From assembly GCA_017642445.1 (NCBI GenBank), contig JAGCPA010000092.1:1655-65654 (forward strand): a stretch of DNA of 64,000 bases, read 5' to 3'. This document shows positions 14,140 through 33,420 of this stretch, in pieces. Position 1 is the first letter of the stretch; each line of letters opens with the position of its first letter. This DNA comes from Spirochaetia bacterium. GTDB lineage: Bacteria; Spirochaetota; Spirochaetia; CADAEX01. Below the pieces are notes generated by a model. That model worked only from the letters and a program-made list of their open reading frames with translations. It searched no databases and was not told the DNA's origin. Position numbers and translations under genes: made by a program.

Positions 14140-14180
14140 AACATTTATTATGCCAGTGCGGTTTAAAGAAGGAAAACAAA

Positions 14181-16466
14181 TTGAAAAAAGAAATACTATC
14201 TGACGAACCAATCAATAAACCAGAAGAAGATATATTGGGTCGTGAAAGTTTCGCTAAAAACCTAGCAGACTCTTTAATATCATGGAAAGAAGAGAAATCA
14301 TTAATCATAGGTCTTTTGGGCAAATGGGGCTCTGGAAAAACATCGGTTATAAATCTAACAGAATACTTTTTAAAAGATATATTACGAAGCCAGACAAAAG
14401 AAAAGAATAAACCAATAGTAATAAAATTTAACCCATGGGGATATTCCCAGACAGAAGATCTACTTATTTCTTTTATTAATCAACTATACTCATCAATAAA
14501 AGATAATAAAAAGATAAGAAAACTAACAAAAGTAATTAAGAAATATATAAATTTTTTTAAGGAAATTAAACCGCAAAAAACGATTAATACGGTATTAACG
14601 ATAACAGCTCTTGTTTTTACAATACTTGGAATAAGCCTTTCTCATATTTTCCAGCAATCACCAGAAATGGTAAACAGTTTAACAAAACGAACTATTATAT
14701 CTTTAGCAATATATGCAGTTGTCTATTTTTCATGGAGATGTTTAGCTTGTATTTTAACAAGGCAAGATAAATTGCCTATATCTGAAATAAAAGAAGAAAT
14801 AAGTAACATTATTATAAAAAACAAAATTAGAATGATAATTATCATCGATGATATAGATCGATTAACCTCAGTTGAAATAAAACAATTATTTAGAATTATA
14901 AGAATTAATGCAGATTTTCCTAATACTATATATTTGCTTTCTTTTGATAGAAATATAGCTGAAAAGAGTTTAACAGTACAAGATACAATTAGTGGGCATG
15001 ATTACTTGGAAAAAATAATAAATATTGAATATGATTTACCAGGGATATCACAATTTAAGCTTGAGAAATATTTCAAAAACAACCTTGAAAAATTAATTTC
15101 TGCTTTACCTGATAATACAGCGAATATTTTTGAAACAGATAATAAAAAATGGTCTCAAATTCATTCTATAATAATCTCAGAATTATCAAGCATAAGAAAT
15201 ATAAAACGCTATTTTAACTCAATTTCTTTTAAAATAAACCAATTTATTAAAGAAAATGTTTTAGAAATAAATCTAGTTGATTTTTTAGGAATAGAACTTA
15301 TTAGATTAAAGTATCCAGATTGCTATTCTTTTATTCGAGACAATAAGCAATGGTTCATATCTGATAAAATGTTGAAAGATGAACCAGGCGCAAAAGAAAA
15401 AGGAACTTATGCAAAATGGTATAAAGACAATGTTCAAAAATTTGGTTCCACTACAAACGAAAAGAATAATATCAATATAATTATAACAGAAATATTTCCA
15501 ATTACCTTTTTTGGTTCAAAAAACATTCAAATTAATTCTCTTTTTAATAAATCTGAAATTGACGCAACCAACTCAATTGCCTCTGAAAGATTTTTTGATA
15601 TATATTTTGACCATATTTCAAGCATTTCAGATGAAGAATGCTCAAATTATGATGCTCAACGAATAAAAGCAGTTTCAAATGATTATGATGCTTTAAAAAC
15701 ACTTTTAAGAGAGTATATTAACAATAATAAAATCCATAGCCTGCTTGATTTGCTGGAAAAACATTCTATTGAAGGAGATTTAATCCCCAAGGATAATTAT
15801 TTATCTTATTTTGCCGCCTTATTTGATATAATTAATGAGATTCCCGATGGACATGAAAGATTGCAATTTGGAAATGATACTATTATCCATAGAATAGTTT
15901 ATTTTTTAATAAGGTTTAATGATAAATATGAAAACGCAGATTTGTTTGAAAAGCTTATAGAAAATACAGAAGATCCGTTCATGTGTTGTGATTTTATTGA
16001 AAATGAAATTAACAACTATAAAGAGCAAAAAGAAGAGCTGGTTGCTCGCAACCGGATTCCTTATTTGCAGCAAAAAATGGTTAAAAAAATATATGAATAT
16101 AGGGATAAACTATTAGATTCCAAATATTTTATTCGTATGCTTTACTTCTGGAGAAAAAATGATTTCGCTAGCTATCAAAGATATATATATGATCTTGCAA
16201 GTGATATAAATAAGCTTTTACGAGCAATCGAAAGAACCTTTTATTTAAGTTATTCTAAATCTAACGATGGTACAGAAAAAGCAAAAAAAGAAATCCGTTA
16301 TGATGATGTAAAGCTACTTGGGGACTTAGAAAACATACGGAATAGACTTCATCTTATTCGCTTTGGCAACGGAGAACTCTACAGAACTAATAAAGAAATA
16401 ATAAATCTATTTTTGGATAATTATGAAAAAGATGGTGTTGCTAAAAAAATATTAATTAAAAAATAG
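14181..16466 (+). CDS. KAP-family P-loop NTPase with two transmembrane helices
   Basis: DEPI..DILGR, GKWGSGKTS, FNPW, TM hairpin insert, IIDDIDRL, DYLEKII; TTG start after SD GAAGGA. Confidence 0.88.
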   Translation: MKKEILSDEPINKPEEDILGRESFAKNLADSLISWKEEKSLIIGLLGKWGSGKTSVINLTEYFLKDILRSQTKEKNKPIVIKFNPWGYSQTEDLLISFINQLYSSIKDNKKIRKLTKVIKKYINFFKEIKPQKTINTVLTITALVFTILGISLSHIFQQSPEMVNSLTKRTIISLAIYAVVYFSWRCLACILTRQDKLPISEIKEEISNIIIKNKIRMIIIIDDIDRLTSVEIKQLFRIIRINADFPNTIYLLSFDRNIAEKSLTVQDTISGHDYLEKIINIEYDLPGISQFKLEKYFKNNLEKLISALPDNTANIFETDNKKWSQIHSIIISELSSIRNIKRYFNSISFKINQFIKENVLEINLVDFLGIELIRLKYPDCYSFIRDNKQWFISDKMLKDEPGAKEKGTYAKWYKDNVQKFGSTTNEKNNINIIITEIFPITFFGSKNIQINSLFNKSEIDATNSIASERFFDIYFDHISSISDEECSNYDAQRIKAVSNDYDALKTLLREYINNNKIHSLLDLLEKHSIEGDLIPKDNYLSYFAALFDIINEIPDGHERLQFGNDTIIHRIVYFLIRFNDKYENADLFEKLIENTEDPFMCCDFIENEINNYKEQKEELVARNRIPYLQQKMVKKIYEYRDKLLDSKYFIRMLYFWRKNDFASYQRYIYDLASDINKLLRAIERTFYLSYSKSNDGTEKAKKEIRYDDVKLLGDLENIRNRLHLIRFGNGELYRTNKEIINLFLDNYEKDGVAKKILIKK

Positions 16467-16499: not shown

Positions 16500-17843
16500 T
16501 TGTTTTCGCCAGGAACTATAATAGCAGGAAGATGGTCTAACCCTTACCTGAAAGATAAGAATTATTTTGGCAATCTTTTTATCTACGAAGAGAAGGCTGT
16601 TTTAAAAATTTATTTCTCCCAAGACCAACTTAAAGCCCAAGAATATAGAGAATTAATTGAACTTTTCAAAGATAACAAAAGTTCTATTTTTTATGGATAT
16701 CACGAGGCATTGCCTCATATATATGGTTATACCCTTGTTGACAATCATATTAAAGAGTCGGTAGCAAATGATGTTTATGTGTTTTATTATGGCGAATTGT
16801 GCATAGAAACAAGGGCCATATATGAAGGAATTATTCTAGAAAAATATGATGAAAAGATAATTGCAAAAGCCGTCTTAAAAACAAGTTATGCAAACAAGTG
16901 GATACCTTCATATGATATTAAAATGAATTCAAAAAAAGGGCGTTTACCAGAACAAATATCTTATTCATTAAAGCAAAAAACCTATCATATTTTTTCGACC
17001 AAAACACTAGATATTGACTTTATTTCTGGGCTTAATGTTAGAAAGGAATTCAATGTTGGTCAAAAAATAGTGCTACAAAACGAAGTCAGGATTGAGATAT
17101 CGGCGAAAACAAAAATAAACCTTGAAACAGTCATGAGATATATTACATATATCAATTCGTTCATTATGCTGTGCTCGGGAAATAATTCAGATATAACAGA
17201 TGTTGAATTATATTATGATTATAATCAAAAATTTCCTAATAAATGCTGGTTTAAAACCACAAAGGGCAGAGAAACTAAATATGATAATATAATTGACTTT
17301 AACACAATCACCCAATGGGATGTTGTATTTTCTCGATGGAATAACCTATGTCTAAAAAGAATTGAAATATTGAATATGCTTTTTTATATTCTTAGATTTC
17401 CAGAAAAGTTTATTCCAGAAATGAAAACTGAAAATCTAGTTCATATTTTCGAAGGATTGATGCGTTATAAATATGGCAAAATAGTTTCCGTTCAAGGTAA
17501 AAATTTAAAATTATTTAACCCTAATAAGAATTATACTCAAGAAATAATTTCAAGTGGCAATCTACTAGGCAAGTTCATTTTCTTTTTCTTGGAGAATAAG
17601 AGGCAGTTTTTTCATGAAGATTTTAAAAGGTTTGCATTAAGTGATACAGAAGCAACCTATGTTTCTTTTATACAAAACTGTATAACATTACGAGATTATT
17701 TTAGCCATGGTGGATTTGACGAGAGAATAAAAACAATTAACCCTATTCTGCTTAATGCATTTTTGCTGAAAGCAGTTAGAATTCTTTTGATTCATGATAT
17801 TTTGGGGATTTCTGATGCGGAAATACCGCTTGAGAGGATATAA
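16500..17843 (+). CDS. ApeA-like HEPN ribonuclease (putative anti-phage)
   Basis: N-terminal GRW..P....GNL pattern typical of the ApeA N-domain; C-terminal HEPN RxxxxH (RDYFSH); own TG-n-TATACT and SD AGGAG. Confidence 0.72.
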   Translation: MFSPGTIIAGRWSNPYLKDKNYFGNLFIYEEKAVLKIYFSQDQLKAQEYRELIELFKDNKSSIFYGYHEALPHIYGYTLVDNHIKESVANDVYVFYYGELCIETRAIYEGIILEKYDEKIIAKAVLKTSYANKWIPSYDIKMNSKKGRLPEQISYSLKQKTYHIFSTKTLDIDFISGLNVRKEFNVGQKIVLQNEVRIEISAKTKINLETVMRYITYINSFIMLCSGNNSDITDVELYYDYNQKFPNKCWFKTTKGRETKYDNIIDFNTITQWDVVFSRWNNLCLKRIEILNMLFYILRFPEKFIPEMKTENLVHIFEGLMRYKYGKIVSVQGKNLKLFNPNKNYTQEIISSGNLLGKFIFFFLENKRQFFHEDFKRFALSDTEATYVSFIQNCITLRDYFSHGGFDERIKTINPILLNAFLLKAVRILLIHDILGISDAEIPLERI

Positions 17844-17879: not shown

Positions 17880-19484
17880 ATGTTTGATATAGAAAATGCA
17901 ATAAAAGAAGCAAAACAAGAATATGCTAATAAAGATTTTGAATTGCTTTTAAAAGAAGGAAATATAGCCTTTTATAAAGGCTGTGAAGTGTCCCATATAT
18001 TTATATTTGATAAAGAAGAAAAAAAAGCTATAAATTATTTTACACTTTTTTCTTTTGACGAATTATCTTCTGTTGATAAAACCCCTAATTATTTATCAAA
18101 ACAACTTGATATAAACGATAGATATTTTTGTGGCATACAAAGAAAACGAATAAGCATAGAAAATGCTCAAAATTGTTTTATTAATATTCAAAAAGGAATC
18201 CTTAATTTTGACGAAGAATGTCTAACTGGTAGAAATTTATATTTGCTACCCAAGGCGTTTGTTCCTTGTGAATCAAATGAAAAAGCACTTCTAAATTCTA
18301 TTCTTAAACCAAATTACTGGGGTGATAATTATATCATTGAGTTTTTTGATGAAAAGAAAGAATTATTGACTGAAATTTTAAATATAAAGAATGTATCTGA
18401 AAAAATCTATGATTATATTAGAAAAACTCAAAGAATAAAAATGGATTTTTCAAAAATCTATGAGAGAATTGGTAATATTATCTTTCAGTTTCCAATAACA
18501 ATATGTAAAACGGGTATTTATTCAGAAAAGAACAGCAATGATATTCGTTTAAAGCTAGAATATCATCCAAGACAAAAAGCAGGTAAAAATATACATATAA
18601 TTATAACAGCATCTTTTGATGATACAATAACAGCTGCTGATTATTATGATTCATGCGATTTAAAAATTGATCATATCTTCCATTTAGGAGACGATTATAA
18701 TCTTACAACTACTATACTAGATAAAGATAATAATCTTTTTCTGCATAAATCAACAGTTAATTTTATAAAAAAAATAAGTATTTCGTCATCTTTGGGAATA
18801 ACCTATTCAGAACCGAGACTTTTAAAAACAGAAACGGGGCACAAAGAAATAGATTTAGTCCATCGTACATCTTTTGGAATAAACATTCAAAGAAAGGATT
18901 ATACAGATTATATTAATCAGCGGGTACGAAACAATGAAATAATAAGAAAAAGTAGTGATTTGGGAGTGTTTAAAAAGAAACAAAGACAAGAAGCTTTGAA
19001 ATTTATTCAAAATAGAATAAAAAACATTTCTTCAGATTTTATTGCTATATATCTATGGGATCCATATCTTTTACCAGCCGATATAATTAATACTTTATAT
19101 TATGAAAATTCAGGATTAATTTTTCAGTGCATTACAGATTACCAAAAAACAAGAAAAAAGTTAAAGGCTAATTGTTTTAGTGATTATATTCAAAAAGTTA
19201 AAGAAGAATTTTCAAGCTTGTCAAACAATCAAGGTGTACATTTAAAACTGGTGGCCAGATATGGTGGGCATGGCTGGGGGTTTCATGACAGATTTCTAAT
19301 ATTTGTTCCGAGAGATTCCTTTACTTTGCCAGAAGTTTATTCACTTGGAATTTCTGTAAATCAACTTGGAAAAAGCCACCATATTATTCAAAAAGTTCCT
19401 AATCCTCGTGTTATTTTAGATGACTTTGAGAAATTATGGAAAGAACTTGATAATTCAGATTGTTGCGTTATCCATATGCCATAA
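17880..19484 (+). CDS. VPA1262-like protein with C-terminal PLD-like (HDR) nuclease-type domain
   Basis: YLWDPY and FHDRFLIF....YSLGISVNQLGKSHHI motifs. Confidence 0.65.
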   Translation: MFDIENAIKEAKQEYANKDFELLLKEGNIAFYKGCEVSHIFIFDKEEKKAINYFTLFSFDELSSVDKTPNYLSKQLDINDRYFCGIQRKRISIENAQNCFINIQKGILNFDEECLTGRNLYLLPKAFVPCESNEKALLNSILKPNYWGDNYIIEFFDEKKELLTEILNIKNVSEKIYDYIRKTQRIKMDFSKIYERIGNIIFQFPITICKTGIYSEKNSNDIRLKLEYHPRQKAGKNIHIIITASFDDTITAADYYDSCDLKIDHIFHLGDDYNLTTTILDKDNNLFLHKSTVNFIKKISISSSLGITYSEPRLLKTETGHKEIDLVHRTSFGINIQRKDYTDYINQRVRNNEIIRKSSDLGVFKKKQRQEALKFIQNRIKNISSDFIAIYLWDPYLLPADIINTLYYENSGLIFQCITDYQKTRKKLKANCFSDYIQKVKEEFSSLSNNQGVHLKLVARYGGHGWGFHDRFLIFVPRDSFTLPEVYSLGISVNQLGKSHHIIQKVPNPRVILDDFEKLWKELDNSDCCVIHMP

Positions 19485-19497
19485 AAAAGAGTTGAAT

Positions 19498-20985
19498 ATG
19501 AAAATTGAATATTTATTAAACGATATAAAAAATGGTAATGAAAGTGCAGAACTGTTTGAAGCATTTAAACAAATATTAGAGAATCCAACAAAAGAAATTA
19601 ATATCGATTTTTTTAAACAAATCAATGCTATTATTTTTAATTATACAAAGATAAATAAAAATGAATTTTTACAAATTAATTTGCCAGAAGAAAAAATAAA
19701 AAAAATAAAAGAATGTCTCATTCTTTCTCGAAAACTATATACTGAAAGTGTCAATGAATTAAGCGAAAAAAAATTAATAATATCATTACTTCTTCTTAGG
19801 TTTTATGAGCAGAGTTTTTTGCTTTTATCGGATATTAAAGTTTCTAAAAACTTTTTAGATAAAATTATTGAAATGCTAAAAAATGTTTCTATAACTTTCA
19901 ATATAAAAGATGATGCACGCTATGGAGAAAAAAAGTGGTTAGATGCTATTAACGAGGCAAAGACTTTAAATGATTATTCTAAAATGTTAAAGATGATGGA
20001 TGAATTAAACAATAGTCCTTTTTTGTTCGAGGGAATTGAATCTTCCTGGACAATTATTTTTCAATGGATTTGGTTTATAAGGCATGAAATAATTATTGAG
20101 TTGATAACCACAATGTCGCCAGAAACAGTAGAAGTTGTATTTTATAGTTTAAAAGATGAAATACATAACATAGTTATTCATCTTCCGCAAAACAACCCCC
20201 AAAAAGCCTATCCTGTTTTAAGAGGGTTTATGCTCTTATTCCATTGTCTTGAAGAAAAAACCCGAGGAGAAAACGCCATTACTTTACAAGAATTACCAGA
20301 TTGTACGGATTGGATTATTGAAATGTTTCATAACAAAATAATTAATATCCCGGAATATATACCGGCAATGAGAATTGCGCATTTAAAATCGTTTAATTAT
20401 TATTTAGGGAAGGCTATTGCAAAGGATATATCACTATTTAATAAATTTCTATCGGCAATTGATTTGGATGCTGAAGTAAGCGTTGTTTTTTCAGAAAGCT
20501 TTTTAGACAATGTGAACCAGAATCGTAAAATATTATTTGTGGGTAATAAAATTATATATAAATATTTTAGTGAAAAAATAAATACATATGATTTTACTAA
20601 TAAAAACATTGGATGCTTAGGCATAATAATACAATATTTTTATTTAAAATATAAAACAAAAGAAAAATACATTAAAAAACTTAATAAAACATCTTCAATG
20701 ATAATTAAAATTCAAAGCAGTTGGGATTTTACAAACATCAAAAAATTCTGGATTTATTTATTTTATTTAGCAATGGCTAATAATTATTTAGAATATCATT
20801 TTACAGAAAAACAATTAAAGGAAATAATTCCGATTGTATTTGACGAGAGAGAAAGAATAAACCAAGGATATTATTGCATAGATACTATAATAGCATTATT
20901 AACTTCATTTGTTGAAAAAATTAAATTAAAGAAGATTAATAATGATGTTGTTGAATTTTCAAAAAAATCGGATAAAAACGAGTAA
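19498..20985 (+). CDS. Hypothetical protein, probable partner of the preceding gene
   Basis: 495-aa ORF 13 bp downstream of the PLD-like gene; no recognised motif. Confidence 0.7.
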   Translation: MKIEYLLNDIKNGNESAELFEAFKQILENPTKEINIDFFKQINAIIFNYTKINKNEFLQINLPEEKIKKIKECLILSRKLYTESVNELSEKKLIISLLLLRFYEQSFLLLSDIKVSKNFLDKIIEMLKNVSITFNIKDDARYGEKKWLDAINEAKTLNDYSKMLKMMDELNNSPFLFEGIESSWTIIFQWIWFIRHEIIIELITTMSPETVEVVFYSLKDEIHNIVIHLPQNNPQKAYPVLRGFMLLFHCLEEKTRGENAITLQELPDCTDWIIEMFHNKIINIPEYIPAMRIAHLKSFNYYLGKAIAKDISLFNKFLSAIDLDAEVSVVFSESFLDNVNQNRKILFVGNKIIYKYFSEKINTYDFTNKNIGCLGIIIQYFYLKYKTKEKYIKKLNKTSSMIIKIQSSWDFTNIKKFWIYLFYLAMANNYLEYHFTEKQLKEIIPIVFDERERINQGYYCIDTIIALLTSFVEKIKLKKINNDVVEFSKKSDKNE

Positions 20986-21099: not shown

Positions 21100-22116
21100 A
21101 TGGCAGAAAATGTTCTTTTGTTAATAGAAATTCTAAAAAGAAATGATTATGTTGGATATATTCAGTATTTACGAGCGAACTTGCCAGAAAAGCTTTATCG
21201 ATATTGCTCTCATACAAACCAAAATATTAGTACAATAACGTCATCAAAAATTCCTTTATCAAATCCACGTTATTTTAATGATCCATTTGATTCATTGTCA
21301 CAGGAGGTTTATAGGGTTTATACCCACTATTATAAAAAAATCGACAGAACAATTCAAAGAATTTTATATTCCCGAGATAAAAAGGTCAGGATACTAAGAG
21401 ATGCGATATTGCGCAGGAATATCTTAAGCAGAAAAGTTGCTTATAAAGAAAAGTTTAAAATATTAGAAGAAGAAAAGCAAAAGATAATTAAACCCAATGC
21501 AGATGTAGGCATTGAGGATATACATATTCACGGAATTCTTTGGGAAATGAAACAAATTTCTGGTTTTACAAATAGATATTTGGGTGATTTTGTGTCAGAT
21601 TCAGGAGTTTTTTGTCTCTCTGAAGAAAAAAACAATATAATTATGCATTCCCATTATGGAAATGCTCATAGTGGCTTTTGTATTGAATATAAAACAGATA
21701 ATATTATTCAAGATATATTAAATGGGAAATATTTTATAATTCCTTTATATTATTCTGATACAATATATACTGATTATTCTGAGCAGATTTACCCGGAGAG
21801 ATTAACATATTTGTGGAATCTTCCACAATTTATGTATAAGAAAAAACAATGGGAATATGAAAAAGAGTGGAGAATTGTTAAATTTGATTCATCTGACCAT
21901 CAATTAGATTTTGACTATATTAACACCATATATTTAGGCGCTTCTTTTGAAAATGTTGATTTTGTTTTTAACAATAATTCTGAAAGGGAAGAAAAGAAAC
22001 AAATTGATTATTTAATTAAATTATTCGACTATTGTAGTGAAAAGGGTATAAAAATTATCCCGCTTCGGGCGGCAACCCATAAATATGGACTTGAAGAACT
22101 TGATAAATACAAATAA
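21100..22116 (+). CDS. DUF2971 domain protein
   Basis: LYRY, FNDPFD, FCLSE, MHSHYGNAHSGFCIEY, WEYEKEWR; own TG-n-TATAAT at 21053-21061. Confidence 0.82.
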   Translation: MAENVLLLIEILKRNDYVGYIQYLRANLPEKLYRYCSHTNQNISTITSSKIPLSNPRYFNDPFDSLSQEVYRVYTHYYKKIDRTIQRILYSRDKKVRILRDAILRRNILSRKVAYKEKFKILEEEKQKIIKPNADVGIEDIHIHGILWEMKQISGFTNRYLGDFVSDSGVFCLSEEKNNIIMHSHYGNAHSGFCIEYKTDNIIQDILNGKYFIIPLYYSDTIYTDYSEQIYPERLTYLWNLPQFMYKKKQWEYEKEWRIVKFDSSDHQLDFDYINTIYLGASFENVDFVFNNNSEREEKKQIDYLIKLFDYCSEKGIKIIPLRAATHKYGLEELDKYK

Positions 22117-22354: not shown

Positions 22355-22465
22355 AAGTTGAACGAAAAATCTGCCTGGAGAGGGGACAGCAGGTTTCGGC
22401 GGCGTCTTTGGACACAGGTGGTCTATTTTTAGTTTACCATTTCTATGGGCGAGGTATGCCCACGC
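22355..22465 (+). promoter_or_regulatory. GC-rich structured 5' leader
   Basis: Several stem-loops, including TGGGC-GAGGTAT-GCCCA with the SD in the loop. Confidence 0.5.
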
Positions 22466-23002
22466 ATGTACACTTCCGATAAAGAAGCGATTATCCTAGA
22501 ACACATTTATAATGACGACTCACTAAAGCAAAGAGAACTTGCAGACAAAGCAGGCATCTCTCTTGGCATGGTCAATGCCATCCTGAAACGACTTATAGAA
22601 AAAGGCTGGCTCATGACCAAGCGTCTTAACCAGCGTAATATAAGTTATGTGGTTTCTCCGGCTGGAATAGAAGAGATATTCAAACGAAGTTATCGATATT
22701 TCATGCGGACTATTGATAATATAAACCTCTATAGAGAAAAAATAGAACAGCTTGTCGCAGAGGCCATGGAAGCCGGATATAATAGTATCACGTTGGTTGG
22801 TAAGAGCGATCTGGAATTCCTTGTGGAGTACACTTGTGGGAAAATGGGAATAGGCTTTAAAAAGGGAGATGCCAATCAGATAAATGGCAAGATGTATATC
22901 TTGTATGGAGAACAGTATGAACCAATTAACAAAATACAGGATAAACATTGGCTTCGAAATATTATAATAACTCAAAAGGCATCAGAAGATAATGACCTAT
23001 GA
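22466..23002 (+). CDS. MarR-like winged-helix regulator of the polysaccharide-locus-associated type
   Basis: QRELADKAGISLGMVNAILKRLIEKGW and ISYVVSPAG. Confidence 0.85.
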   Translation: MYTSDKEAIILEHIYNDDSLKQRELADKAGISLGMVNAILKRLIEKGWLMTKRLNQRNISYVVSPAGIEEIFKRSYRYFMRTIDNINLYREKIEQLVAEAMEAGYNSITLVGKSDLEFLVEYTCGKMGIGFKKGDANQINGKMYILYGEQYEPINKIQDKHWLRNIIITQKASEDNDL

Positions 23003-23037
23003 ATATAAAAAGATTGGTTTTTTAGTTTGGATTAGTG

Positions 23038-23877
23038 ATGTTTTATTCACCGCTTAGATATCCAGGAGGAAAAGGAAAGCTTACTCCTGTTATTGAAAAA
23101 TTGATAAATCAATATGGTCATAGAGGGGGCACATATATTGAACCTTTCGCTGGAGGAGCTGCTGTTGCTATTGAATTGCTCGAGAGAGGAGTCGTTTCTG
23201 AAATTGTAATCAATGACTTGGATAAAGGCATTTATTCTTTTTGGCGGGCAATTCTGGAGGATACAGAAAGATTTATCAAACAGATAAAAGCTGTTCCTTT
23301 AAATATTGATGAATGGAAACATCAGAGAGATATTTGTTTTAATCAAAACAAAAAATATAGTTTTGAGTTAGGTTTTGCAACTTTTTATATGAATCGAACT
23401 AATCGGTCAGGTATAATTAAGGGCGGCGTTATTGGTGGCCAGAATCAAGCGAGGGAATGGAAATTAGATGCTCGCTTTAATAGGAACAGATTGATTGAAA
23501 GAATAGAAAAGATAGCAAAGAATAAATCAAAAATCCATCTCTATAATAAAGATGTTGAATCATTTATTATAAATTATATTCCGCTTTATGGGGATAATTC
23601 GTTTATTTATTTTGACCCGCCATATTATAATAAGGGGAAACAATTATATTTGAATTTCTTTAATCACAATGATCATTTAAGAATTGCTAAACTGATAAAG
23701 GAAAAAGTAAATAGTGATTGGGTTATTACATATGATGAAGAACCACAAATAGCAGAAATATATAAAGAATATACTATTCGACCATATAAATTAAACTATA
23801 GTGTTTCAAAAAAAAGAACAGGAAAAGAAATAATTATATTTAAGACAACAGTAAATATGTATGAAGAAATTTCATGA
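23038..23877 (+). CDS. D12-class N6-adenine DNA methyltransferase
   Basis: SPLRYPGGK, EPFAGG, IND, DPPY. Confidence 0.92.
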   Translation: MFYSPLRYPGGKGKLTPVIEKLINQYGHRGGTYIEPFAGGAAVAIELLERGVVSEIVINDLDKGIYSFWRAILEDTERFIKQIKAVPLNIDEWKHQRDICFNQNKKYSFELGFATFYMNRTNRSGIIKGGVIGGQNQAREWKLDARFNRNRLIERIEKIAKNKSKIHLYNKDVESFIINYIPLYGDNSFIYFDPPYYNKGKQLYLNFFNHNDHLRIAKLIKEKVNSDWVITYDEEPQIAEIYKEYTIRPYKLNYSVSKKRTGKEIIIFKTTVNMYEEIS

Positions 23878-23904: not shown

Positions 23905-25533
23905 ATGGAAGAATATAAGACAGCCGCAGATTTTGGATATGAAAGCAATAAAGATGTAATTATAGAAAAGATTGAAAAAATTATTATCGAAAAATTTAGA
24001 ACTATCGAAAACCAAGAAATACTTTTAGGAGACAACCTGACAATATTGTCTGGAAAAAACGGTACAATGAAATCTTCAATTCTTGGTTTAATTGCACATC
24101 CATTTTCATCCCCCAATGATGCGGTTGATTCTTTTGGTGTCAAACTAAAAACTGACATGAAAGATGTTTTTTATCTAAGTTTAGAGAAAGATAAAGAAAT
24201 CTACCGATACAATCTCGTATTAAAAACGGATAAGGCCGAATATATCTCTGAGCCAATTCGTGTTTATCCTCGTCCGAGCGAAAAGCGTCATCGAGTAACA
24301 GTTGGGAAAGATAATACAAAAGGATTAGGGAATTTTTCTCTTAATACCGCGTATATTAATTTAAAAAGGGTATATCCAATTGTTGAAACACAAGCTGAAT
24401 CAAATGATTCTTCACTTGGCACAGATGAGAAGAAGTTTATAGCTGAAGGATATTATAAAATACTTCAACGAGAAGATTTTTCGGAGCCAGTTGTGGTTGA
24501 AGAAAAAAGACGAAAAAACACTTTTGGGCCATCACCAACAGCAACTTATGATTTTAAGTCCATTTCATCGGGAGAAGATAATTTAGGACATATACTTAAT
24601 AAAATGTTTGCATTTATCAATTATCAATGCAAAGAACGAAAACTACAAGGTGTTTTGTGTATAGATGAAGTTGAAGCCGCATTACACCCAATTGCACAAA
24701 AATGTCTTCTTGAATATTTATTGTCGTGGTCAAAAAAATATAATATTCAAGTTGTTGTAACGTCTCATTCTCTTTATTTTATCCAATGCGCATTGGAGCA
24801 ACAAGAAAAAGAGAAAGATGCTATTTCAATAAATATGATAAGTACAGCACATGTTTCTGGGAAAAAATATCAAGTAATACATAATCCAACTTACTCAATG
24901 GCATATAAAGAACTTACCTTAGATGATTTAAACGGGTTAATGGAATCATATCTTATAGATATTTTGTGTGAAGATAAAGTTGCTGAATATTATTTGAAAA
25001 CTATCTTATCATCAAGAAATATTAAAAAACGACTTAATTTCATGCATGATATGTTCTTTGAACAGGAGGGAACTGGGTTTAAGACATATAAGGCTTTAAT
25101 AAAGAATGGTGAAAAACTTCTAGAAAATGCAATCGTTGTATTTGATTCCGATGTTGATATTTCAAGTTTAAAGGGAAATGTTAGTTTTTTAAAACTTCCT
25201 TCAAAATATGAAATGCCTTTAGAAAAAGAATTAGTAAAGTATATTCACGATTTAGAAGGAGACAATAATTTTTTTAAGAAATATAAAAGAGAAAAACAAT
25301 TTTTTTTGAGGGAGTTTGGAAAATATAATATTACTGATTATGATATTGATCATATGAAAAAGGACGATAGTTTGAAATATAAGAACTGGTTCAGGTCTGA
25401 CCCCAAAAGAAATCAATATATTAACTATTTCGCAAAAAATAATGATTCGTTCATTACCCCTTTTAGAAAAAAATTGATAATGCTTGTTAATGAGAAGTTA
25501 AAAAGGAAATCATTACCTATAATAGCAGAATAA
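23905..25533 (+). CDS. ABC-type (AAA_15/AAA_21-like) ATPase fused to a TOPRIM-like domain (OLD/PARIS-like)
   Basis: Walker A GKNGTMKSS, signature ISSGED, Walker B IDEVEAALHP, H-loop TSHS, then LCED...FDSD. Confidence 0.78.
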   Translation: MEEYKTAADFGYESNKDVIIEKIEKIIIEKFRTIENQEILLGDNLTILSGKNGTMKSSILGLIAHPFSSPNDAVDSFGVKLKTDMKDVFYLSLEKDKEIYRYNLVLKTDKAEYISEPIRVYPRPSEKRHRVTVGKDNTKGLGNFSLNTAYINLKRVYPIVETQAESNDSSLGTDEKKFIAEGYYKILQREDFSEPVVVEEKRRKNTFGPSPTATYDFKSISSGEDNLGHILNKMFAFINYQCKERKLQGVLCIDEVEAALHPIAQKCLLEYLLSWSKKYNIQVVVTSHSLYFIQCALEQQEKEKDAISINMISTAHVSGKKYQVIHNPTYSMAYKELTLDDLNGLMESYLIDILCEDKVAEYYLKTILSSRNIKKRLNFMHDMFFEQEGTGFKTYKALIKNGEKLLENAIVVFDSDVDISSLKGNVSFLKLPSKYEMPLEKELVKYIHDLEGDNNFFKKYKREKQFFLREFGKYNITDYDIDHMKKDDSLKYKNWFRSDPKRNQYINYFAKNNDSFITPFRKKLIMLVNEKLKRKSLPIIAE

Positions 25534-25613: not shown

Positions 25614-28049
25614 ATGCATGAAATTATAATTGATTTAAATGAAGATAATATTATATTTACAAATGAACAAATAATTCATCAGGATGAACTTAAAAAAGCA
25701 AAGGAAATAATAAAAGAAACTCTTAGAACCTTAGGCAATGGAAAGCCCAAAGACATTCATTTTGACCAATCATTAGCTTTTAATAACACAATTCTCATAG
25801 AAGGAACAAGAGGTTCTGGAAAGACTTCTTTCCTGTTATCATTAATGCAGACATGTAAAGATAATTTTTCTAATTTGGAAATCCTCCCGCTCCTTGATCC
25901 AACCATGGCTGAAGAAAAAGCTCATATATTTTTAACAATCATAAGTATGATAAAAAATGTAGTGGAAAGAAAAATTGACAGTTTTGATGACAATACTAAT
26001 CTTGGAAAAAGAAAAGATTGGGAAAATAGATTAATTAAACTTTCAAAAGGACTTCCAATAATTGATGGAGTATCAGAAAAAAAACCAGATTATTGGGATG
26101 ATGCATCGCAGATAATGTATAAAGGGCTGGAGGATGTCGATGCTGCTTTTAGTTTGCGAAGCAATTTTAATGACTTTATAAGCGAAAGCCTTTCTATTTT
26201 AGGAAAGGATGCATTTTTGTTGGTTATTGATGATGTTGATACTGATTTTAATAAAGCATGGCCTGTTTTGGAGATGCTCAGAAAATATATTTGTACCAAT
26301 AAAATAATATCAATAGTTAGTGGAGATTATAATCTTTTTTCGTATGCTGTGCGAAAAAAACAATGGAAAAATTTTGGGGAATCGCTCCTAAAGAATGAAT
26401 ATGATAAATATATTGATAATTCAAATAAGTATCCCGTACAAGTTAACGATCTTGAAAACCAATATTTGAAAAAAATTCTTCCTGTTGAAAACCGTATTAA
26501 CCTTCATTCTATTTATGAATTAATAGCAGGGAAAAAAGAAATTAGAATAATAACTGTAAATACATCAAAGAAAACTGCAATAGAAGATTTTTATACTGAA
26601 ATACTACAGCACTTTGGAATAAGAAATGTTGGTCAACGACTATCGTATATCCGTTTTATTGAATCGTTGCCAATTCGAACCCAAATTCAGCTAATGAAAG
26701 TTTTAGGCAACAACAATTATGATATTATAAATACATTTATTACAGAATTATATTATTATAATATAAGGATAAACTTATTAAGCGATAATAAAGTATTTCT
26801 TATAATTTCTATACTCAGATTTCTTGCTGAAAATGATGAGTTATTTAATTATTATCAGCTTGAACCAATTAGCGATTCAATTATTAAAAATGCTTGTCTT
26901 TTAACATTTAGCCTTTTATTGTCTGAAAGCATAAAGGGCAATTCTTTGCAGCTTTTTAACTATATTATAAAAATAGGATATGTCCGCAACTTGATTCCCT
27001 ATTTTGATAATAAAATAGCTGACGATAATAAACGCGTAGGAATAAAAGATTTAATAAATTATACAAGTCTTTATAATGAAAATGATTTACACCTGATTAG
27101 TAGTAAAATTATTTCATATATGCGTTCTGTAATTGGAAAGGATTCAAAATCATTTGCAGGAACACTAGTACTGTCTGGTTTTGCTGCAAAGGCTAAAGAA
27201 AAACAAGAAAAACATGCCAATTCTTTTGATACCATTGTAAATGGGATACAGAACCCATTGCTAAAACAAATTGCCTGCCTTCCTCTTTCTGTTACTTCTT
27301 TTGAAAAAAAGACAGCAACGGTAAATGAATATTCCTTTTTTACTCTATTGGCGGGTATTTATGATATAGTAAATGAGTTTAAACAGATTGATGAAAAAAA
27401 ACGCGAAACAGAACTACCCGAAATTATTTACAAAGTTAGTCAAATTAGAAAATATCCAGGATTTGATTTTATCTCCAATAATTCTTTTAAGGAAAACGAA
27501 GAAAATATAGTGCCAGTTATTAAATCAAAAGAAATCAATATTAATAGTGAAGACTGGAAACATTTTTTCCAGGTCTTTGAAACATGGTTAAACAGATCAT
27601 CAAACGGCATCGTTGTTTCTTCATATGTGTTAGGAAAAATTTGTACTCGTTCCATGGTGGCTTTTGACGAAATAATCATTGCCAGCGGGAAGAAAACACT
27701 TGGTGAAATAATGCATTTGTTTATCTGCGCTTTCTTTAATGCTTGTATCATTGAAGAAATGCAAGATGTATTAGATAATGTTCCAATAATTAGTAGGGAT
27801 AATGTTCTTTCTAGCGAAGACGAACTAAAAAACAACTTGAAAGCAGTAATAAAATCGCTTAAAGAAAACAAATTGCCTGTTACAAGATTTTTCATAACTT
27901 GTCCATTTCTGTTGGTATTTATTAATAATAATTCTGGAATTTGGGAGCAACTGACTGACTTTACTGATATTGATAGTATGAAAAAAATACAAATATATTC
28001 TGACCTCTGTATAATTAATGTAAAAGATTTGAAGTCAGCAACAAATTGA
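25614..28049 (+). CDS. rdrA: RADAR ATPase RdrA
   Basis: Walker A GTRGSGKTS, LLDPT, Walker B IDDVD, QYLKKILP; upstream of a large adenosine deaminase; SD GGAGG. Confidence 0.82.
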   Translation: MHEIIIDLNEDNIIFTNEQIIHQDELKKAKEIIKETLRTLGNGKPKDIHFDQSLAFNNTILIEGTRGSGKTSFLLSLMQTCKDNFSNLEILPLLDPTMAEEKAHIFLTIISMIKNVVERKIDSFDDNTNLGKRKDWENRLIKLSKGLPIIDGVSEKKPDYWDDASQIMYKGLEDVDAAFSLRSNFNDFISESLSILGKDAFLLVIDDVDTDFNKAWPVLEMLRKYICTNKIISIVSGDYNLFSYAVRKKQWKNFGESLLKNEYDKYIDNSNKYPVQVNDLENQYLKKILPVENRINLHSIYELIAGKKEIRIITVNTSKKTAIEDFYTEILQHFGIRNVGQRLSYIRFIESLPIRTQIQLMKVLGNNNYDIINTFITELYYYNIRINLLSDNKVFLIISILRFLAENDELFNYYQLEPISDSIIKNACLLTFSLLLSESIKGNSLQLFNYIIKIGYVRNLIPYFDNKIADDNKRVGIKDLINYTSLYNENDLHLISSKIISYMRSVIGKDSKSFAGTLVLSGFAAKAKEKQEKHANSFDTIVNGIQNPLLKQIACLPLSVTSFEKKTATVNEYSFFTLLAGIYDIVNEFKQIDEKKRETELPEIIYKVSQIRKYPGFDFISNNSFKENEENIVPVIKSKEININSEDWKHFFQVFETWLNRSSNGIVVSSYVLGKICTRSMVAFDEIIIASGKKTLGEIMHLFICAFFNACIIEEMQDVLDNVPIISRDNVLSSEDELKNNLKAVIKSLKENKLPVTRFFITCPFLLVFINNNSGIWEQLTDFTDIDSMKKIQIYSDLCIINVKDLKSATN

Positions 28050-28267
28050 ATAACGTTAAAATTGAATTTAGAGAATGGAACAGTGAATATATTTTTGCAA
28101 AGTTAAAAGAAGAGCATTATCCACTTCAAGCATTTATGGATAAGGCTTCAGATGATTTAAGAAAGGATATAAAAGGCTATTTTGAAAAATGTTCAAGGAT
28201 GACTAAAACATTTGAATATCATCTAAATAAGTTAAGAATGAAATTAAAGGGACAGAATTCTTATTAA
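28046..28267 (+). CDS. Small 73-aa protein between rdrA and rdrB
   Basis: TTG overlaps the rdrA stop (TTGA) and its TAA overlaps the rdrB ATG (TAATG). Confidence 0.6.
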   Translation: MNNVKIEFREWNSEYIFAKLKEEHYPLQAFMDKASDDLRKDIKGYFEKCSRMTKTFEYHLNKLRMKLKGQNSY

Positions 28268-30546
28268 TGGAATCGCAGATTAAGTTTTTTCAATGCGATA
28301 TGATTTCTCTTAATGATTATCATCATGGATACAGAGTATCTTTTGATGATGTAAAGCGCAGATTACTTTTGAAACAACGTGAATTAAATGTTGGAATATC
28401 AGATAACTGCTATAAATTGAATCAAAAGAAATCATTTTATGGAATTGACAGTTTTATTTCATTTTTTACGAAAGCCATTCCAGACTATATAAAAAAATAC
28501 TTATATATTAATCAAACAAAAATATATGTTAAAGAAGATTATTTTATTGAATGGCAAGACTTAATAACAAATTGTTCGCCGCTATTTCTAATGGCTGAAT
28601 TTTTGCATAGTTTACATATTCTTTCTAATTTTGACTGGCAAGAAGTTCAACACATTTTTTCTTTATATATTCTAGAAAATTCTAGATACACTGCACTTGT
28701 TTCACCGAACATAAAACCATTGGATGATTTCTTTGAACAGAACAAAGGATTTTATGACTTACACATTCATTTAAATGGAATCACAGAAAGCGATGCAGTC
28801 TGGCAGAGTTTTTTATCAGATAAGTATCATAATTTATATAATATTTCTAAAAAAATTAATACTGATTCGTTTAAACAACAGTTAGAACAAATGGGGCTTG
28901 ATTATTCTCTTAATGATTTTTTATCCTTGATTAATAGGGCAAAAGCAATTCGAGAATATTTTTTTAGAAAAATTTTTTGTGACAGCAAACATTATATGCA
29001 GGAACGAATTAGTAGTGATAGTTTTTATAATCCTTTTTTGATGCTTGTTGGCAAACCAGAAATACCCATGCATCCGAACAGACAACTTCGCTATGAACTA
29101 TTAATGTATATCATCGTTCTTAAATATCTTGAGAAGGAACAAGACGAACATATGGCTATGTGTTTGCATGAATACTTACTTATTGCAGGTTTCTTTCATC
29201 AATTACTTGTTCAAAATTCAATGCAATTTGGTTTTACACAGTTTCAGAATATAACATTGAATGATATCCGTGCAGAAACAGACAGAAATCAGTTAAATAA
29301 ATTTTTACAAATCTGTGGAAATAATTTAAAAAATATTAATACAATTGAACTTCGTTTTTCTCCCAAGGATTCAATTGATAAGCAGATGCCGATTCTTAGG
29401 CAAATAAAACGGGATTGGGAAAAATTACAAGAAATTGTAACCCATAAAGATCCCTCTTATGATTTTAAACCCAATTATGTATTAATAGCTCATTTTATTA
29501 AACAGAAAGATAAAGATTCCATAAATATACCTTTCGAGAAACTACGGACCAACCTTGAAAAGAAAAAATTAATGTTACAATCATTGAAGAACATGGGCTC
29601 TGCTCTTTCTAAGAAAATAGTTGCTATTGACGCGGCTTCAAGCGAATTTGATACACCTCCAGAGGTCTTTGCTCCGTTTTTCAACGAGTTAAGAGAAAAA
29701 CAATGCTTCAATCATATGACATATCATGCGGGGGAAGATTTTTATCATATTCTTAGTGGTCTTAGAGCAATTTACGAAGTAATAATGTTTATGCAAATGA
29801 AAAATGGCGATAGAATAGGGCATGCAACAGCTACTGGAATTGATATAGAGACTTGGTTGTCAATTGTTGGAAAGCAAATACTTCTTCCGAAAGGTGAATA
29901 TTTAGATGATCTTGTTTTTGCTTATAATTTAATTAATGAAGAACATATTGAAGAGTTGTTTCATATTCTTCAATTTCTTAACATGAACATAGAAAAATTA
30001 AGTTATGAAGTTTATGATGAAGCATATAATGTTTCGTTGTTGATTGATTGTTGGAAAATGAGAAACCAAGAACCTAGAAATATTAAATTTGATGGGGACA
30101 AAAAGAAAAAAGATTATTTTGAAAAATATAATAATAAAATAATTCGTAAAAAATATAATGAACCTGTTGAGATTAATGTTACAGATGTTTTTAATGTCGA
30201 TCAACTTGTTAAATTGCAACAGGCTATTTTGTGCCTAATGCAAAGAAAAGAGATTATAATAGAAACTTTACCAACAAGTAACCTTCGAATTGGATATCAT
30301 AAGACATTAGAGAGTTATCAACTATTTAATTGGTTTAAATGGAGAAAAAAGGGCATACCTATTCCCCCGATTATACTTGGAACCGATGACCCGGGGATTT
30401 TTTCGACAAATATATATAATGAGTTTGCTCTAATATATTGCTATATGGTTTATAAAGAAAACTTGTCGCGCTCGGAAACGATGACTTTCTTACAAGAAAT
30501 AAATGCTAATAGTAGAATATATTCATTTTCAGGAGAAAAACTCTAA
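28267..30546 (+). CDS. rdrB: RADAR adenosine (ATP) deaminase RdrB
   Basis: 759 aa; DLHIHLNG, HAGEDF, RIGHA, ETLPTSN, GTDDPGIF. Confidence 0.85.
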   Translation: MESQIKFFQCDMISLNDYHHGYRVSFDDVKRRLLLKQRELNVGISDNCYKLNQKKSFYGIDSFISFFTKAIPDYIKKYLYINQTKIYVKEDYFIEWQDLITNCSPLFLMAEFLHSLHILSNFDWQEVQHIFSLYILENSRYTALVSPNIKPLDDFFEQNKGFYDLHIHLNGITESDAVWQSFLSDKYHNLYNISKKINTDSFKQQLEQMGLDYSLNDFLSLINRAKAIREYFFRKIFCDSKHYMQERISSDSFYNPFLMLVGKPEIPMHPNRQLRYELLMYIIVLKYLEKEQDEHMAMCLHEYLLIAGFFHQLLVQNSMQFGFTQFQNITLNDIRAETDRNQLNKFLQICGNNLKNINTIELRFSPKDSIDKQMPILRQIKRDWEKLQEIVTHKDPSYDFKPNYVLIAHFIKQKDKDSINIPFEKLRTNLEKKKLMLQSLKNMGSALSKKIVAIDAASSEFDTPPEVFAPFFNELREKQCFNHMTYHAGEDFYHILSGLRAIYEVIMFMQMKNGDRIGHATATGIDIETWLSIVGKQILLPKGEYLDDLVFAYNLINEEHIEELFHILQFLNMNIEKLSYEVYDEAYNVSLLIDCWKMRNQEPRNIKFDGDKKKKDYFEKYNNKIIRKKYNEPVEINVTDVFNVDQLVKLQQAILCLMQRKEIIIETLPTSNLRIGYHKTLESYQLFNWFKWRKKGIPIPPIILGTDDPGIFSTNIYNEFALIYCYMVYKENLSRSETMTFLQEINANSRIYSFSGEKL

Positions 30547-31338
30547 ATGAAAACATTGATTCTTGCCGGTGGTTTAGGGAGTCGATTGGGAGAAGAAACA
30601 CAGAGAATTCCCAAGCCTATGGTTGAAATAGGTAATTACCCGATTCTTTGGCATATAATGAAAATCTACAGTCACTATGGCTTTAACGATTTCATTATTC
30701 TGACTGGGTATAAAGGTCATGTTATAAAAGACTTCTTCTTGAATTATTACAATCGTTATTCTGACATCACCATTGATATGTCGAACAATGATGTTCAGAT
30801 TCACAAAATGCGGACCGAGCCATGGACCGTGACCATGCTTTACACTGGGCAGACAACTATGACAGGTGGCAGAATTAAAGCGGCCCAGAGATATATTGGA
30901 AACGAACCATTTATGCTTACCTATGGTGATGGTGTTGCGGATATAGATATTGGAAAGCTTATAGAATGCCATGAAAAATCTAATAAACTTGTTACTTTGA
31001 CTGCAGTTCAGCCTTCTGGTCGGTTTGGGGCATTGGATATCGTTGATGACAACAAAATAAAAAACTTCAAAGAAAAACCCACAGGGGATGGCAATTGGAT
31101 AAACGGCGGATTCTTCGTATGTGATAATAAGGCTTTTGACTATATCAAAGAAAATGACCCAACTGTCATTTGGGAAAAAGAGCCACTTCAGAGCTTGGCA
31201 AAGGATGGGCAGCTCAATGCCTATAAGCATTCTGGATTTTGGCATCCTATGGATATGCTTAAAGATAAACAAGAATTAACAGAACTTTGGGTAAACCACA
31301 AGGCTCCTTGGATGATATGGAATCAGTGGCAGAAATAA
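30547..31338 (+). CDS. rfbF: Glucose-1-phosphate cytidylyltransferase
   Basis: LAGGLGSR, PKPMVEIG, TGGRIK, TYGDG, WINGGFF. Confidence 0.95.
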   Translation: MKTLILAGGLGSRLGEETQRIPKPMVEIGNYPILWHIMKIYSHYGFNDFIILTGYKGHVIKDFFLNYYNRYSDITIDMSNNDVQIHKMRTEPWTVTMLYTGQTTMTGGRIKAAQRYIGNEPFMLTYGDGVADIDIGKLIECHEKSNKLVTLTAVQPSGRFGALDIVDDNKIKNFKEKPTGDGNWINGGFFVCDNKAFDYIKENDPTVIWEKEPLQSLAKDGQLNAYKHSGFWHPMDMLKDKQELTELWVNHKAPWMIWNQWQK

Positions 31339-32399
31339 GTTCTTTTTACAATAATAAAAGAGTTTTCATCACTGGACATACCGGTTTTAAGGGAACTTGG
31401 CTTACTAGAATCCTGATGATGTTCGGAGCAGATGTTGTTGGATATTCTTTAGAGCCACCAACAAACCCCTCTCTCTTTAATCAGACTAGGACGGGTAATC
31501 AGATTCATTCAGTTATTGGTGATGTAAGGGACAGAGCCAAACTGACCACAGTAATGCAAGAAGCTCGACCTGATATAGTCCTGCATCTTGCCGCTCAACC
31601 TATTGTTAGAACATCATATAAAGAACCAGTCTTAACATACGAAACTAATGTTATGGGAACAGTTAATGTTCTAGAAGCTGTCAGAGAGGTAAAAAGCATA
31701 AGATCCGTTGTCAATGTTACTACCGATAAGGTCTATCTAAACAGAGAAAGAGAAGCAGGATATAGAGAAGATGAAGAACTTTGCGGTTACGATCCTTATT
31801 CTAATAGTAAAAGCTGTAGTGAACTTGTGACATATAGCTATAGAAATTCCTTTTTTGCTGACAAAAGTGCTCCCGCAATATCTACGGCACGGAGCGGCAA
31901 TGTGATTGGCGGTGGAGATTATGCAGCTGATAGAATAATCCCAGATTGCATACGAGCCGTAGAGCAAGGACAACCAATAATGTTACGTAACCCGAATTCA
32001 ACAAGACCTTATCAGCATGTTCTGGAATGCCTTAGAGGATATCTAATACTTGCCCAAAAACAATATCTGGATAAAACAATTACTGGTGCCTATAACTTTG
32101 GACCTGATGATGAAAGTTGCGTTACCACAGGAGAGTTAGCAACTTTGTTTTGTGATAAATGGGGTGATGGGGTATATTGGGAAAGCAAAAAGGAACTCTT
32201 CCCCCCCCCCTATGAAGCAACTTTCTTGAAATTGGACAACACAAAGGCAAAAAAGATCTTGAATTGGTTTCCAAAGTGGGATATTAAAATAGCGGTTGAA
32301 AAAACAATTGAGTGGGAAAAAGCCGTAAAAAAGGGTATTAGTGCTGCTGAAATCACAGACAACCAAATAAAAGAATATTTAATTTATCTTTATGAATAA
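31317..32399 (+). CDS. rfbG: CDP-glucose 4,6-dehydratase
   Basis: TGHTGFKG, HLAAQP, TTDKVY, YSNSK, GNVIGGGD, HVLE. Confidence 0.95.
   Translation: MESVAEISSFYNNKRVFITGHTGFKGTWLTRILMMFGADVVGYSLEPPTNPSLFNQTRTGNQIHSVIGDVRDRAKLTTVMQEARPDIVLHLAAQPIVRTSYKEPVLTYETNVMGTVNVLEAVREVKSIRSVVNVTTDKVYLNREREAGYREDEELCGYDPYSNSKSCSELVTYSYRNSFFADKSAPAISTARSGNVIGGGDYAADRIIPDCIRAVEQGQPIMLRNPNSTRPYQHVLECLRGYLILAQKQYLDKTITGAYNFGPDDESCVTTGELATLFCDKWGDGVYWESKKELFPPPYEATFLKLDNTKAKKILNWFPKWDIKIAVEKTIEWEKAVKKGISAAEITDNQIKEYLIYLYE
32201..32210 (+). repeat. C10 homopolymer tract within rfbG
   Basis: Ten consecutive C in AT-rich DNA, currently in frame (FPPPY). Confidence 0.85.
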
Positions 32400-33420
32400 T
32401 ATTAAATTATTAGACTGCACATTACGCGATGGAGGATTAGGTCTTGATGATATCCAACAGTATGGTTATTCTTGTTCTTTTACGGCCAATCAAATAAGTA
32501 CAATTTATAATAATCTACTTGAATCTAATGCAGATTTAATTGAATGTGGTTCAATAGAAATATCAGATAACGATAAAACAAAATTTGCAATTTATAAAAA
32601 TATTGAAAATATTTCAAAAGGCGCAATTCCATTATCTAAAAGGCGCGTAGCTTTATATCGGGGACCCGATACACCAATTGAAGATATTCCGCGTTGGACT
32701 AAAAGCCTAATTAAAAATATTCGTGTAATTATTCGCTATTCGGAACTAGAAAAATCCATGCTTTTCTGTAGGGACTTGGCTGCAAAGGGATATAATGTTT
32801 TTATACAACCCATGGTAACAGCTCGTTATACTGATAAAGAAATCAAATATATGATATCAATGGCAAATGAAATGAAAGCTTTTGCTATCTATTTTGTTGA
32901 TAGCTATGGATATTTGACCTATAATGAAATAAAAAAATATTTTAACTTATATAATAAATATTTAAAAAATACTATTTATATTGGTTTTCATGCTCATAAT
33001 AATATCAATATGGCATTTGCAAATGCACAATTTTTTATTGGTTTAGCTCGCAAAGAAAACCGTAAGGCTATCATTGATTCATCCTGCTTTGGAATGGGAC
33101 AAGGGGCTGGAAATTTACAAACAGAACTCATATCAAATTATTTAAATAAAGAAGTAGGGACCAAATATAAGATAGATAAAATTTTAACAGTATGTGATCT
33201 GCTTGAACCATTATATAAATTACAGATCTGGGGATATTCTCCAATGTATCTTATTCCAGCCCAAAATAGGGCCGCATATAAGTTTTCAGTAGCGCTGCGC
33301 AAGAGGTATAATTATTCATATCCAGATATTTCTGAGTGTCTTAAGGATATTCCAGATGTATTAAGGCATCGTTATTCCAAAGAGAATCTAAATGCTTTGT
33401 TTAAATTGAGATCAGAATAA
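32392..33420 (+). CDS. DRE-TIM (4-hydroxy-2-oxovalerate aldolase-like) enzyme
   Basis: DCTLRDGG, VDSYG, GFHAHNN, GMGQGAGN. Confidence 0.82.
   Translation: MNNIKLLDCTLRDGGLGLDDIQQYGYSCSFTANQISTIYNNLLESNADLIECGSIEISDNDKTKFAIYKNIENISKGAIPLSKRRVALYRGPDTPIEDIPRWTKSLIKNIRVIIRYSELEKSMLFCRDLAAKGYNVFIQPMVTARYTDKEIKYMISMANEMKAFAIYFVDSYGYLTYNEIKKYFNLYNKYLKNTIYIGFHAHNNINMAFANAQFFIGLARKENRKAIIDSSCFGMGQGAGNLQTELISNYLNKEVGTKYKIDKILTVCDLLEPLYKLQIWGYSPMYLIPAQNRAAYKFSVALRKRYNYSYPDISECLKDIPDVLRHRYSKENLNALFKLRSE

Follow-up and report, generated by a model that had tools for sequence, protein, structure and literature searches.

A frameshift in rdrA very probably accounts for the small open reading frame between rdrA and rdrB in the RADAR operon of a gut bacterium

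Introduction

In Escherichia coli RADAR a heptamer of the AAA+ protein RdrA docks as a funnel on a dodecamer of RdrB. RdrA stimulates RdrB on phage infection, and ITP and dITP then poison the nucleotide pool. Here a RADAR locus is described in which a 73-amino-acid (aa) open reading frame (ORF) stands between rdrA and rdrB. The locus lies in a 64,000-nucleotide (nt) stretch of DNA, referred to as the window, from Spirochaetia bacterium (GenBank assembly GCA_017642445.1, contig JAGCPA010000092.1, positions 1,655 to 65,654 of the forward strand).

In Duncan-Lowey et al. (2023; PMC9994260) the RdrA heptamer is described as having two layers, of which the top one is AAA+, with a four-helix 'crown' insertion at its summit; RdrA also has a unique helical C-terminal domain, which is hypothesised to be the phage sensor. 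In Streptococcus suis RdrA the last four alpha helices swing round by ∼120 degrees and form a protein-protein interface. The same source reports that RdrB converts ATP/dATP to ITP/dITP, that the active sites of both RdrA and RdrB are needed in vivo, and that over-expression of RdrB is toxic. RADAR subtypes include stand-alone (rdrAB), Csx27-associated (rdrABC) and SLATT-associated (Gao et al., 2020, as summarised in PMC7699616).

The window locus resembles stand-alone RADAR of E. coli (structures 8fnt/8fnw and 8hr7-8hrb; PMC9994260) in having the same gene pair in the same order, a P-loop/AAA+ ATPase with a helical C-terminal lobe (judged from a profile and from the fold of an intact homolog) and an adenosine deaminase with all catalytic motifs. 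It differs in that rdrA appears to be split by a frameshift, leaving the last four-helix module as a separate 73-aa frame, and in that the proteins fall under the NCBIfam equivalog cut-offs. In common with Csx27- and SLATT-associated RADAR the operon holds a small extra frame, but unlike those accessory genes this frame has the sequence of RdrA, is situated between rdrA and rdrB and matches neither family in Pfam. No Pfam or PADLOC match to Csx27 or SLATT was obtained for the 73-aa ORF or the flanking genes, and the locus was assigned to the stand-alone rdrAB subtype because no gene of either kind lies nearby. The locus is very probably an ordinary two-gene RADAR system of this subtype, in which a frameshift in rdrA severs the last module and the apparent extra gene is that module.

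Layout of the RADAR locus

The RADAR locus consists of three consecutive ORFs on the + strand of the window, rdrA-like, 73-aa and rdrB-like, with the following features.

25614..28049, + strand: rdrA body, 811 aa from ATG 25614 or 815 aa from the in-frame TTG 25602, ending at an out-of-frame TGA to which the proposed frameshift gives rise.
28029..28057, + strand: putative frameshift zone between the conserved KDL and KIEF, across which the rdrA frame passes into the -1 frame.
28046..28267, + strand: 73-aa ORF with a TTG start, the predicted orphaned C-terminal module of RdrA by homology to RdrA C-termini.
28267..30546, + strand: rdrB, predicted RADAR adenosine deaminase, 759 aa, full length and intact.

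The longest rdrA frame starts at TTG 25602. ATG 25614 is preceded by GGAGG at 6-7 nt and is the start used in a database record of 811 aa (P0127). The TTG of the 73-aa ORF (28046-48) overlaps the rdrA stop TGA (28047-49) as TTGA, and its stop TAA (28265-67) overlaps the rdrB start ATG (28267-69) as TAATG. Inspection of the upstream sequence gave no Shine-Dalgarno (SD) motif before TTG 28046. Promoter and terminator scans were at the level of shuffled sequence (33 promoters found against 35.4 expected; 3 terminators against 1.8). The three ORFs and both overlaps had been reported at these positions in the original prediction, which was made from the DNA letters alone, and the sequence agrees with it. 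Its description of the outer two genes as an RdrA-type ATPase and an RdrB-type deaminase with intact motifs was likewise borne out by the searches that follow.

The RdrA body

The rdrA product was matched by PADLOC to RdrA (1e-29) and carries Walker A (GTRGSGKTS) and Walker B (LLVIDDVD) motifs, in which the G, R, G, G and K of Walker A and the DD.D of Walker B were invariant across 93 RdrA homologs. A profile of RdrA relatives that included the window protein matched solved E. coli RdrA (8hr7_A/8fnt_B) with an E value of 1.3e-74, over profile positions 5-853 of 891 and chain residues 13-928 of 947. Identity to E. coli RdrA was ∼18-19%.

A search with the 815-aa protein gave 179 relatives at E ≤ 1e-5, and 109 of the best 120 of these 179 were at least 860 aa long. 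The closest full-length RdrAs among the matches listed were P0005 (894 aa, 86% identity), P0006 (901 aa, 59%) and P0007 (916 aa, 55%). The window RdrA is ∼80 residues short by comparison; together with the 73-aa ORF its 815 residues come to 888, against 894, 901 and 916 aa in these three homologs.

The two-lobed fold of RdrA was judged on a model of the 86%-identical P0005, rather than on the split protein of the window as one chain. AlphaFold2 (AF2), given a 93-row alignment, produced a model of intact P0005 with a pLDDT (predicted local distance difference test score) of 86.4 and a pTM (predicted template modelling score) of 0.81. In Foldseek the model matched the solved RdrA rings (8hr8_G, E 7.7e-34, TMq 0.71, TMt 0.76; TM overall 0.70-0.77) and, more weakly, S. 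suis RdrA (8fnu_A, E 3.2e-12). The pLDDT fell below 50 only at residues 44-53 and 817-825. Residues 817-825 correspond to the site at which the window RdrA breaks, and helices 831-843, 848-853, 856-863 and 875-889 come after it. The split RdrA body is predicted to retain the ATPase and most of the C-terminal lobe, without a covalently attached terminal module. [quoted passage not shown]

RdrB

RdrB was matched by PADLOC (2.6e-27) and, above its cut-off, by Pfam A_deaminase (PF00962, 4e-10). It matched solved E. coli RdrB (8fnw_A) with an E value of 7.2e-60, query residues 154-755 against chain residues 141-796, and its motifs HIHLNG, YHAGED, DRIGHA and GTDDPG align with those of the E. coli protein (HxH, HxGE, H, DD). 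RdrB relatives in 52 other loci that hold both genes were mostly 758-873 aa (46 unsplit, complete proteins in this range) and align from residues 1-14. On this evidence the window rdrB is judged to be full length and intact, and to encode a predicted deaminase.

Both proteins score under the narrow NCBIfam equivalog cut-offs (RdrA, NF041743, 135.8 against 600 bits, measured on intact P0005; RdrB, NF041744, 164.6 against 800 bits). That both genes belong to RADAR is well supported by the profile and motif matches, and the low equivalog scores mark a divergent clade.

Identity of the 73-aa ORF

The original prediction had offered two explanations for the 73-aa ORF, a new third subunit or regulator on the one hand and a split or frameshifted RdrA C-terminus on the other. 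Alignment with RdrA homologs decided for the second. The 73 residues matched the last 72 of full-length RdrA, with 65 of 72 identical (90%, E 9e-44) to P0005 residues 823-894, and with 38 of 69 identical (55%) to P0006 residues 833-901. Over the body the identities were 86% and 59%, respectively. Both homologs (P0005/P0130 and P0006) are metagenomic and encode body and tail in a single frame, whereas the window protein and four truncated variants described below stop at ...KDLKSATN. In an alignment of 13 sequences the window RdrA ends where the others enter a conserved tail of ∼70 residues. A hidden Markov model (HMM) of this tail (86 positions, built on 85 of the 93 aligned RdrAs) matched the 73-aa ORF with an E value of 1.7e-9. 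In 24 other loci the match of the same HMM was confined to the extreme C-terminus of a long rdrA ORF.

Nothing was found that would make the 73-aa ORF a member of a family of its own. An exhaustive HMMER search of 1.84e9 representatives returned only the P0006 C-terminus and one weak match to a 582-aa protein, and a word-indexed search of proteins of 40-128 aa gave no stand-alone small family beyond the ORF's own cluster. There was no Pfam or PADLOC match (best Pfam E 0.14, to an unrelated family). The ORF had also been described as charged and distinct from SLATT-type accessory proteins; its lysine/glutamate-rich composition and the lack of a SLATT-type domain in the Pfam and PADLOC searches uphold these two points.

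AF2 modelled the 73 residues alone as a compact beta-alpha-alpha-alpha-beta-alpha unit with four helices (pLDDT 89.9, pTM 0.77). Foldseek of this model against the PDB gave nothing at E ≤ 0.001 (best 2.8), and the best hit in a wide VIA-align search had a Z of 4.5 (FF domains, 58 aligned, root-mean-square deviation 3.1), which is noise level for a small helical domain. A complex prediction of RdrA residues 300-815 with the 73-aa tail gave a score of 0.00 (mark 0.32), which speaks neither for nor against a complex.

Because of the C-terminal identity to P0005 and P0006, the match to the tail HMM and the lack of a stand-alone family, the 73-aa ORF is considered to be RdrA sequence, most simply the severed C-terminus of RdrA, and not a gene family of its own. 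The idea of a truly novel accessory protein with no relation to RdrA can practically be dismissed: position alone speaks for a new gene, while 90% identity to an RdrA C-terminus already refutes it and the empty family, Pfam and PADLOC searches point the same way.

Arrangement in other RADAR loci

Scanning species-representative genomes with the RdrA alignment yielded 61 loci, and 52 of them hold both rdrA and rdrB. In all 52 the distance from the rdrA stop to the rdrB start was -71 to +52 nt (first-start rule), with overlap in 29. The window gap of 217 nt is unique, and it is filled exactly by the tail ORF. A -1 overlap of rdrA and rdrB like that of the tail's TAATG was seen in 5 other loci; the TAATG is the ordinary rdrA/rdrB junction. 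None of the 52 loci had an extra gene between rdrA and rdrB, and none had a split tail as in the window. With no stand-alone homolog either, the proposed third subunit or regulator was not sustained as a gene family.

Disrupted RADAR genes are not rare among the 61 loci. In a Chryseobacterium sp. (L008) rdrA is split into 422 and 495 aa and rdrB into 569 and 188 aa, and two Bacteroidales metagenome-assembled genomes have rdrB in pieces of 479 and 363 aa (L035) and of 456 and 201 aa (L041). These genes resemble the window rdrA in being split into two frames, but their breaks fall in the middle of the gene, away from the linker that precedes the terminal module. At a further locus (L033) the rdrA match is only 675 aa and begins near the start of the fetched stretch.

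The probable frameshift lesion

No single continuous ORF contains both the RdrA body and the terminal module; the body ends at 28049 and the tail lies in the -1 frame. From KDL to KIEF the window has 26 nt, against 9 codons (27 nt) in P0005, and it is therefore concluded that one base was lost within 28029-28057 and that reading moved to the -1 frame. The linker between KDL and KIEF is variable. Read in the -1 frame, the window resembles P0005 from just after KDL, with 3 of 9 linker residues identical, compared with 1 of 9 if the slip were at the stop, which hints that the base was lost near the 5' end of the zone. It weighs against the proposed loss that the missing base is deduced from protein spacing rather than from an alignment of DNA. 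A search of genome contigs with P0005 found no DNA of a close full-length relative, and the closest of the scanned loci was 39% identical.

No split rdrA was described in the RADAR literature searched, exclusive of Table S1 of PMC9994260 (270 RADAR systems). A word search of the available text of PMC9994260 met no mention of truncation, RdrC, RdrD, accessory genes or SLATT genes.

The same junction could be crossed by programmed -1 ribosomal frameshifting, for example by P-site slippage of tRNA-Asn at A-AAU before UGA, which would regenerate a full-length RdrA. The shift needed is -1, slippage at the stop would give a 9-residue linker of the length found in P0005, and a slowly decoded stop codon can promote slippage. 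The usual signals, however, are lacking. The junction lacks an X XXY YYZ heptamer, no SD-like stimulator precedes it, and the 96 nt that follow form no stimulatory structure (minimum free energy -7.5 kcal/mol, z +0.75; 153 of 200 shuffled sequences folded as well or better). The tail is in frame in 24 of 24 relative loci with a detectable tail, so that the arrangement is not conserved, and, since the -1 frame begins to resemble P0005 directly behind KDL, the lesion is placed upstream of the stop. Recoding of this kind is very unlikely, and a lost base is preferred.

Recurrence of the split allele

An exact look-up found four truncated RdrA variants that all end ...KDLKSATN: P0004 (806 aa), P0127 (811 aa, the window's own RdrA from the ATG), and the partial P0128 and P0129. 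They occur on 2, 6, 1 and 2 contigs, respectively. The 73-aa ORF occurs exactly on 5 contigs, and a variant with 3 substitutions is still 73 aa long. The split alleles are at least 96% identical and form one narrow clade. In P0004, a 96%-identical truncated RdrA, the first ∼60 residues are quite different from those encoded at window positions 25614-25800 and resemble the N-terminus of P0006, which suggests that rdrA alleles have recombined at the 5' end.

Four sequencing runs were aligned to the window, as Logan contigs rather than reads. The runs containing the stretch are gut metagenomes. Runs X6 and X7 each gave a contig over 28016-28112 with no indel in the junction zone; each comes from a different study, and neither study is one to which X1 or X3 belongs. 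In X6 a 992-letter contig (depth 6.4) has the same junction; its T5 run after 28091 is longer by one T, and an 89-to-90-letter stretch in the tail is replaced (28091-28201). Together these changes would break the tail frame in that strain, and could be decay of a remnant or a low-depth contig error.

The frameshift is a heritable allele of a narrow clade and not a one-off assembly error, on contig evidence, because the same end-point occurs in four protein variants and the same junction in contigs of two other studies. A sequencing indel joining the 73-aa ORF to rdrA, which had been named as grounds for abandoning the original prediction, is thereby set aside, the junction recurring in other assemblies and samples. 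Two points weigh on the other side: X1 and X3, the possible source runs, yielded nothing but short unrelated pieces that leave the junction uncovered, and all support is contig-level, with none at the level of reads from the source sample. That the true genome has one continuous rdrA, broken here by a sequencing or assembly artefact, would fit with these two runs and with a genome assembled from a metagenome (1.70 Mb in 103 contigs, with one rdrA copy). It is nevertheless highly improbable, given the shared end-point of four variants from other assemblies, the identical junction letters in X6 and X7 from two other studies, and a site that is not a long homopolymer.

Genomic context

The RADAR operon stands at the end of a defence island, in an animal-gut bacterium of low GC content. 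Upstream of rdrA the island contains the following genes.

12859-14139: PDC-S01-like AAA_14/DUF4143 ATPase (5.5e-49).
14124-16466: PifA-like KAP NTPase (2.4e-74).
16500-17843: ApeA-like protein (ApeA_NTD1).
17880-19484: VPA1262-family N-terminal domain protein (2.8e-46).
19420-20985: 521-aa frame without assignment.
21100-22116: PDC-S31/DUF2971 protein (1.3e-33).
22445-23002: winged-helix (wHTH) regulator.
23035-23877: PD-Lambda-5_B-like D12 methyltransferase (1.4e-115).
23905-25533: OLD/ABC-type ATPase, 542 aa.

From 30547 the downstream genes are higher in GC and concern sugar nucleotides and polysaccharides (nucleotidyl transferase, GDP-mannose-dehydratase-like). GC content is ∼0.27-0.31 in the island and goes up to 0.38-0.40 where these genes begin (30500-32500), and this rise marks the right border of the island. 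A search of 19 other genomes of the family found RdrA in none, a patchy distribution that fits a mobile island.

Discussion

In the proposed sequence of events, a single-base loss in rdrA would fall in the disordered linker before the last, self-contained four-helix module. RdrA would then terminate after 811 or 815 aa, and the 73-aa module would be left as a separate open frame reaching up to the normal rdrA/rdrB junction.

What this means for function is less certain than the lesion itself. We lean towards a RADAR system that is disabled or attenuated, with the terminal module lost and rdrB uncoupled from a well-translated upstream frame. The module removed is conserved in 85 of 93 relatives. 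The rdrB gene is now coupled to a tail frame with a weak TTG start and no SD motif, frame-breaking extra letters are present inside the tail in one X6 contig, and RADAR genes are broken elsewhere (L008, L035 and L041). Several observations tell against such a loss. The tail frame is open both in the 73-aa ORF and in the 3-substitution variant, none of the 4 substitutions that X6 and X7 show in the rdrA 3' end and the tail changes an amino acid in its frame, and rdrB is intact. Among the 93 aligned homologs 8 extend less than 40 aa past the break point (P0008, P0009, P0010, P0012, P0046, P0047, P0071 and P0089). Comparison of the truncated alleles offered only 5 variable amino-acid positions, too few to infer relaxed selection.

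It is possible, though less probable than disablement or attenuation, that the truncated RdrA can dispense with the module and still function, as may be the case for some natural short RdrAs. The split falls at a domain boundary, which is in favour of retained function. At one of the 61 loci (L038) an rdrA of 809 aa is followed by rdrB after 38 nt, and some RdrAs may naturally lack the terminal module.

A functional gene fission was also considered. Here termination-reinitiation at UUGA would yield the tail from the UUG, and this polypeptide would serve in trans as a small third subunit, a detachable sensor or interface module. The overlapping stop and start permit coupling, although the start codon is weak and lacks an SD motif. 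The break lies exactly in the disordered linker and the tail is predicted by AF2 to fold autonomously; none of the 52 other RADAR loci, however, has a split tail. Several strain variants keep the split allele with an open tail frame, and 2 of 2 tail substitutions are synonymous, but these variants belong to one narrow clade (at least 96% identical), which leaves little time for selection to show, and the tail of one X6 contig carries frame-breaking extra letters. Fission is unlikely on balance. If it were true, the split allele would have been kept in several gut strains since it still defends, or defends differently.

With the frameshift as the preferred explanation, annotation of the locus should read rdrA (frameshifted) and rdrB, and not a three-gene RADAR variant. 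The locus adds a divergent gut-bacterial RADAR clade, ∼18-19% identical to E. coli RdrA. The break would lie at the flexible linker before a module that the RADAR structure paper highlights as mobile and as belonging to the putative sensor, and the split allele and its intact 894-aa relative form a natural pair for testing the role of the terminal module.

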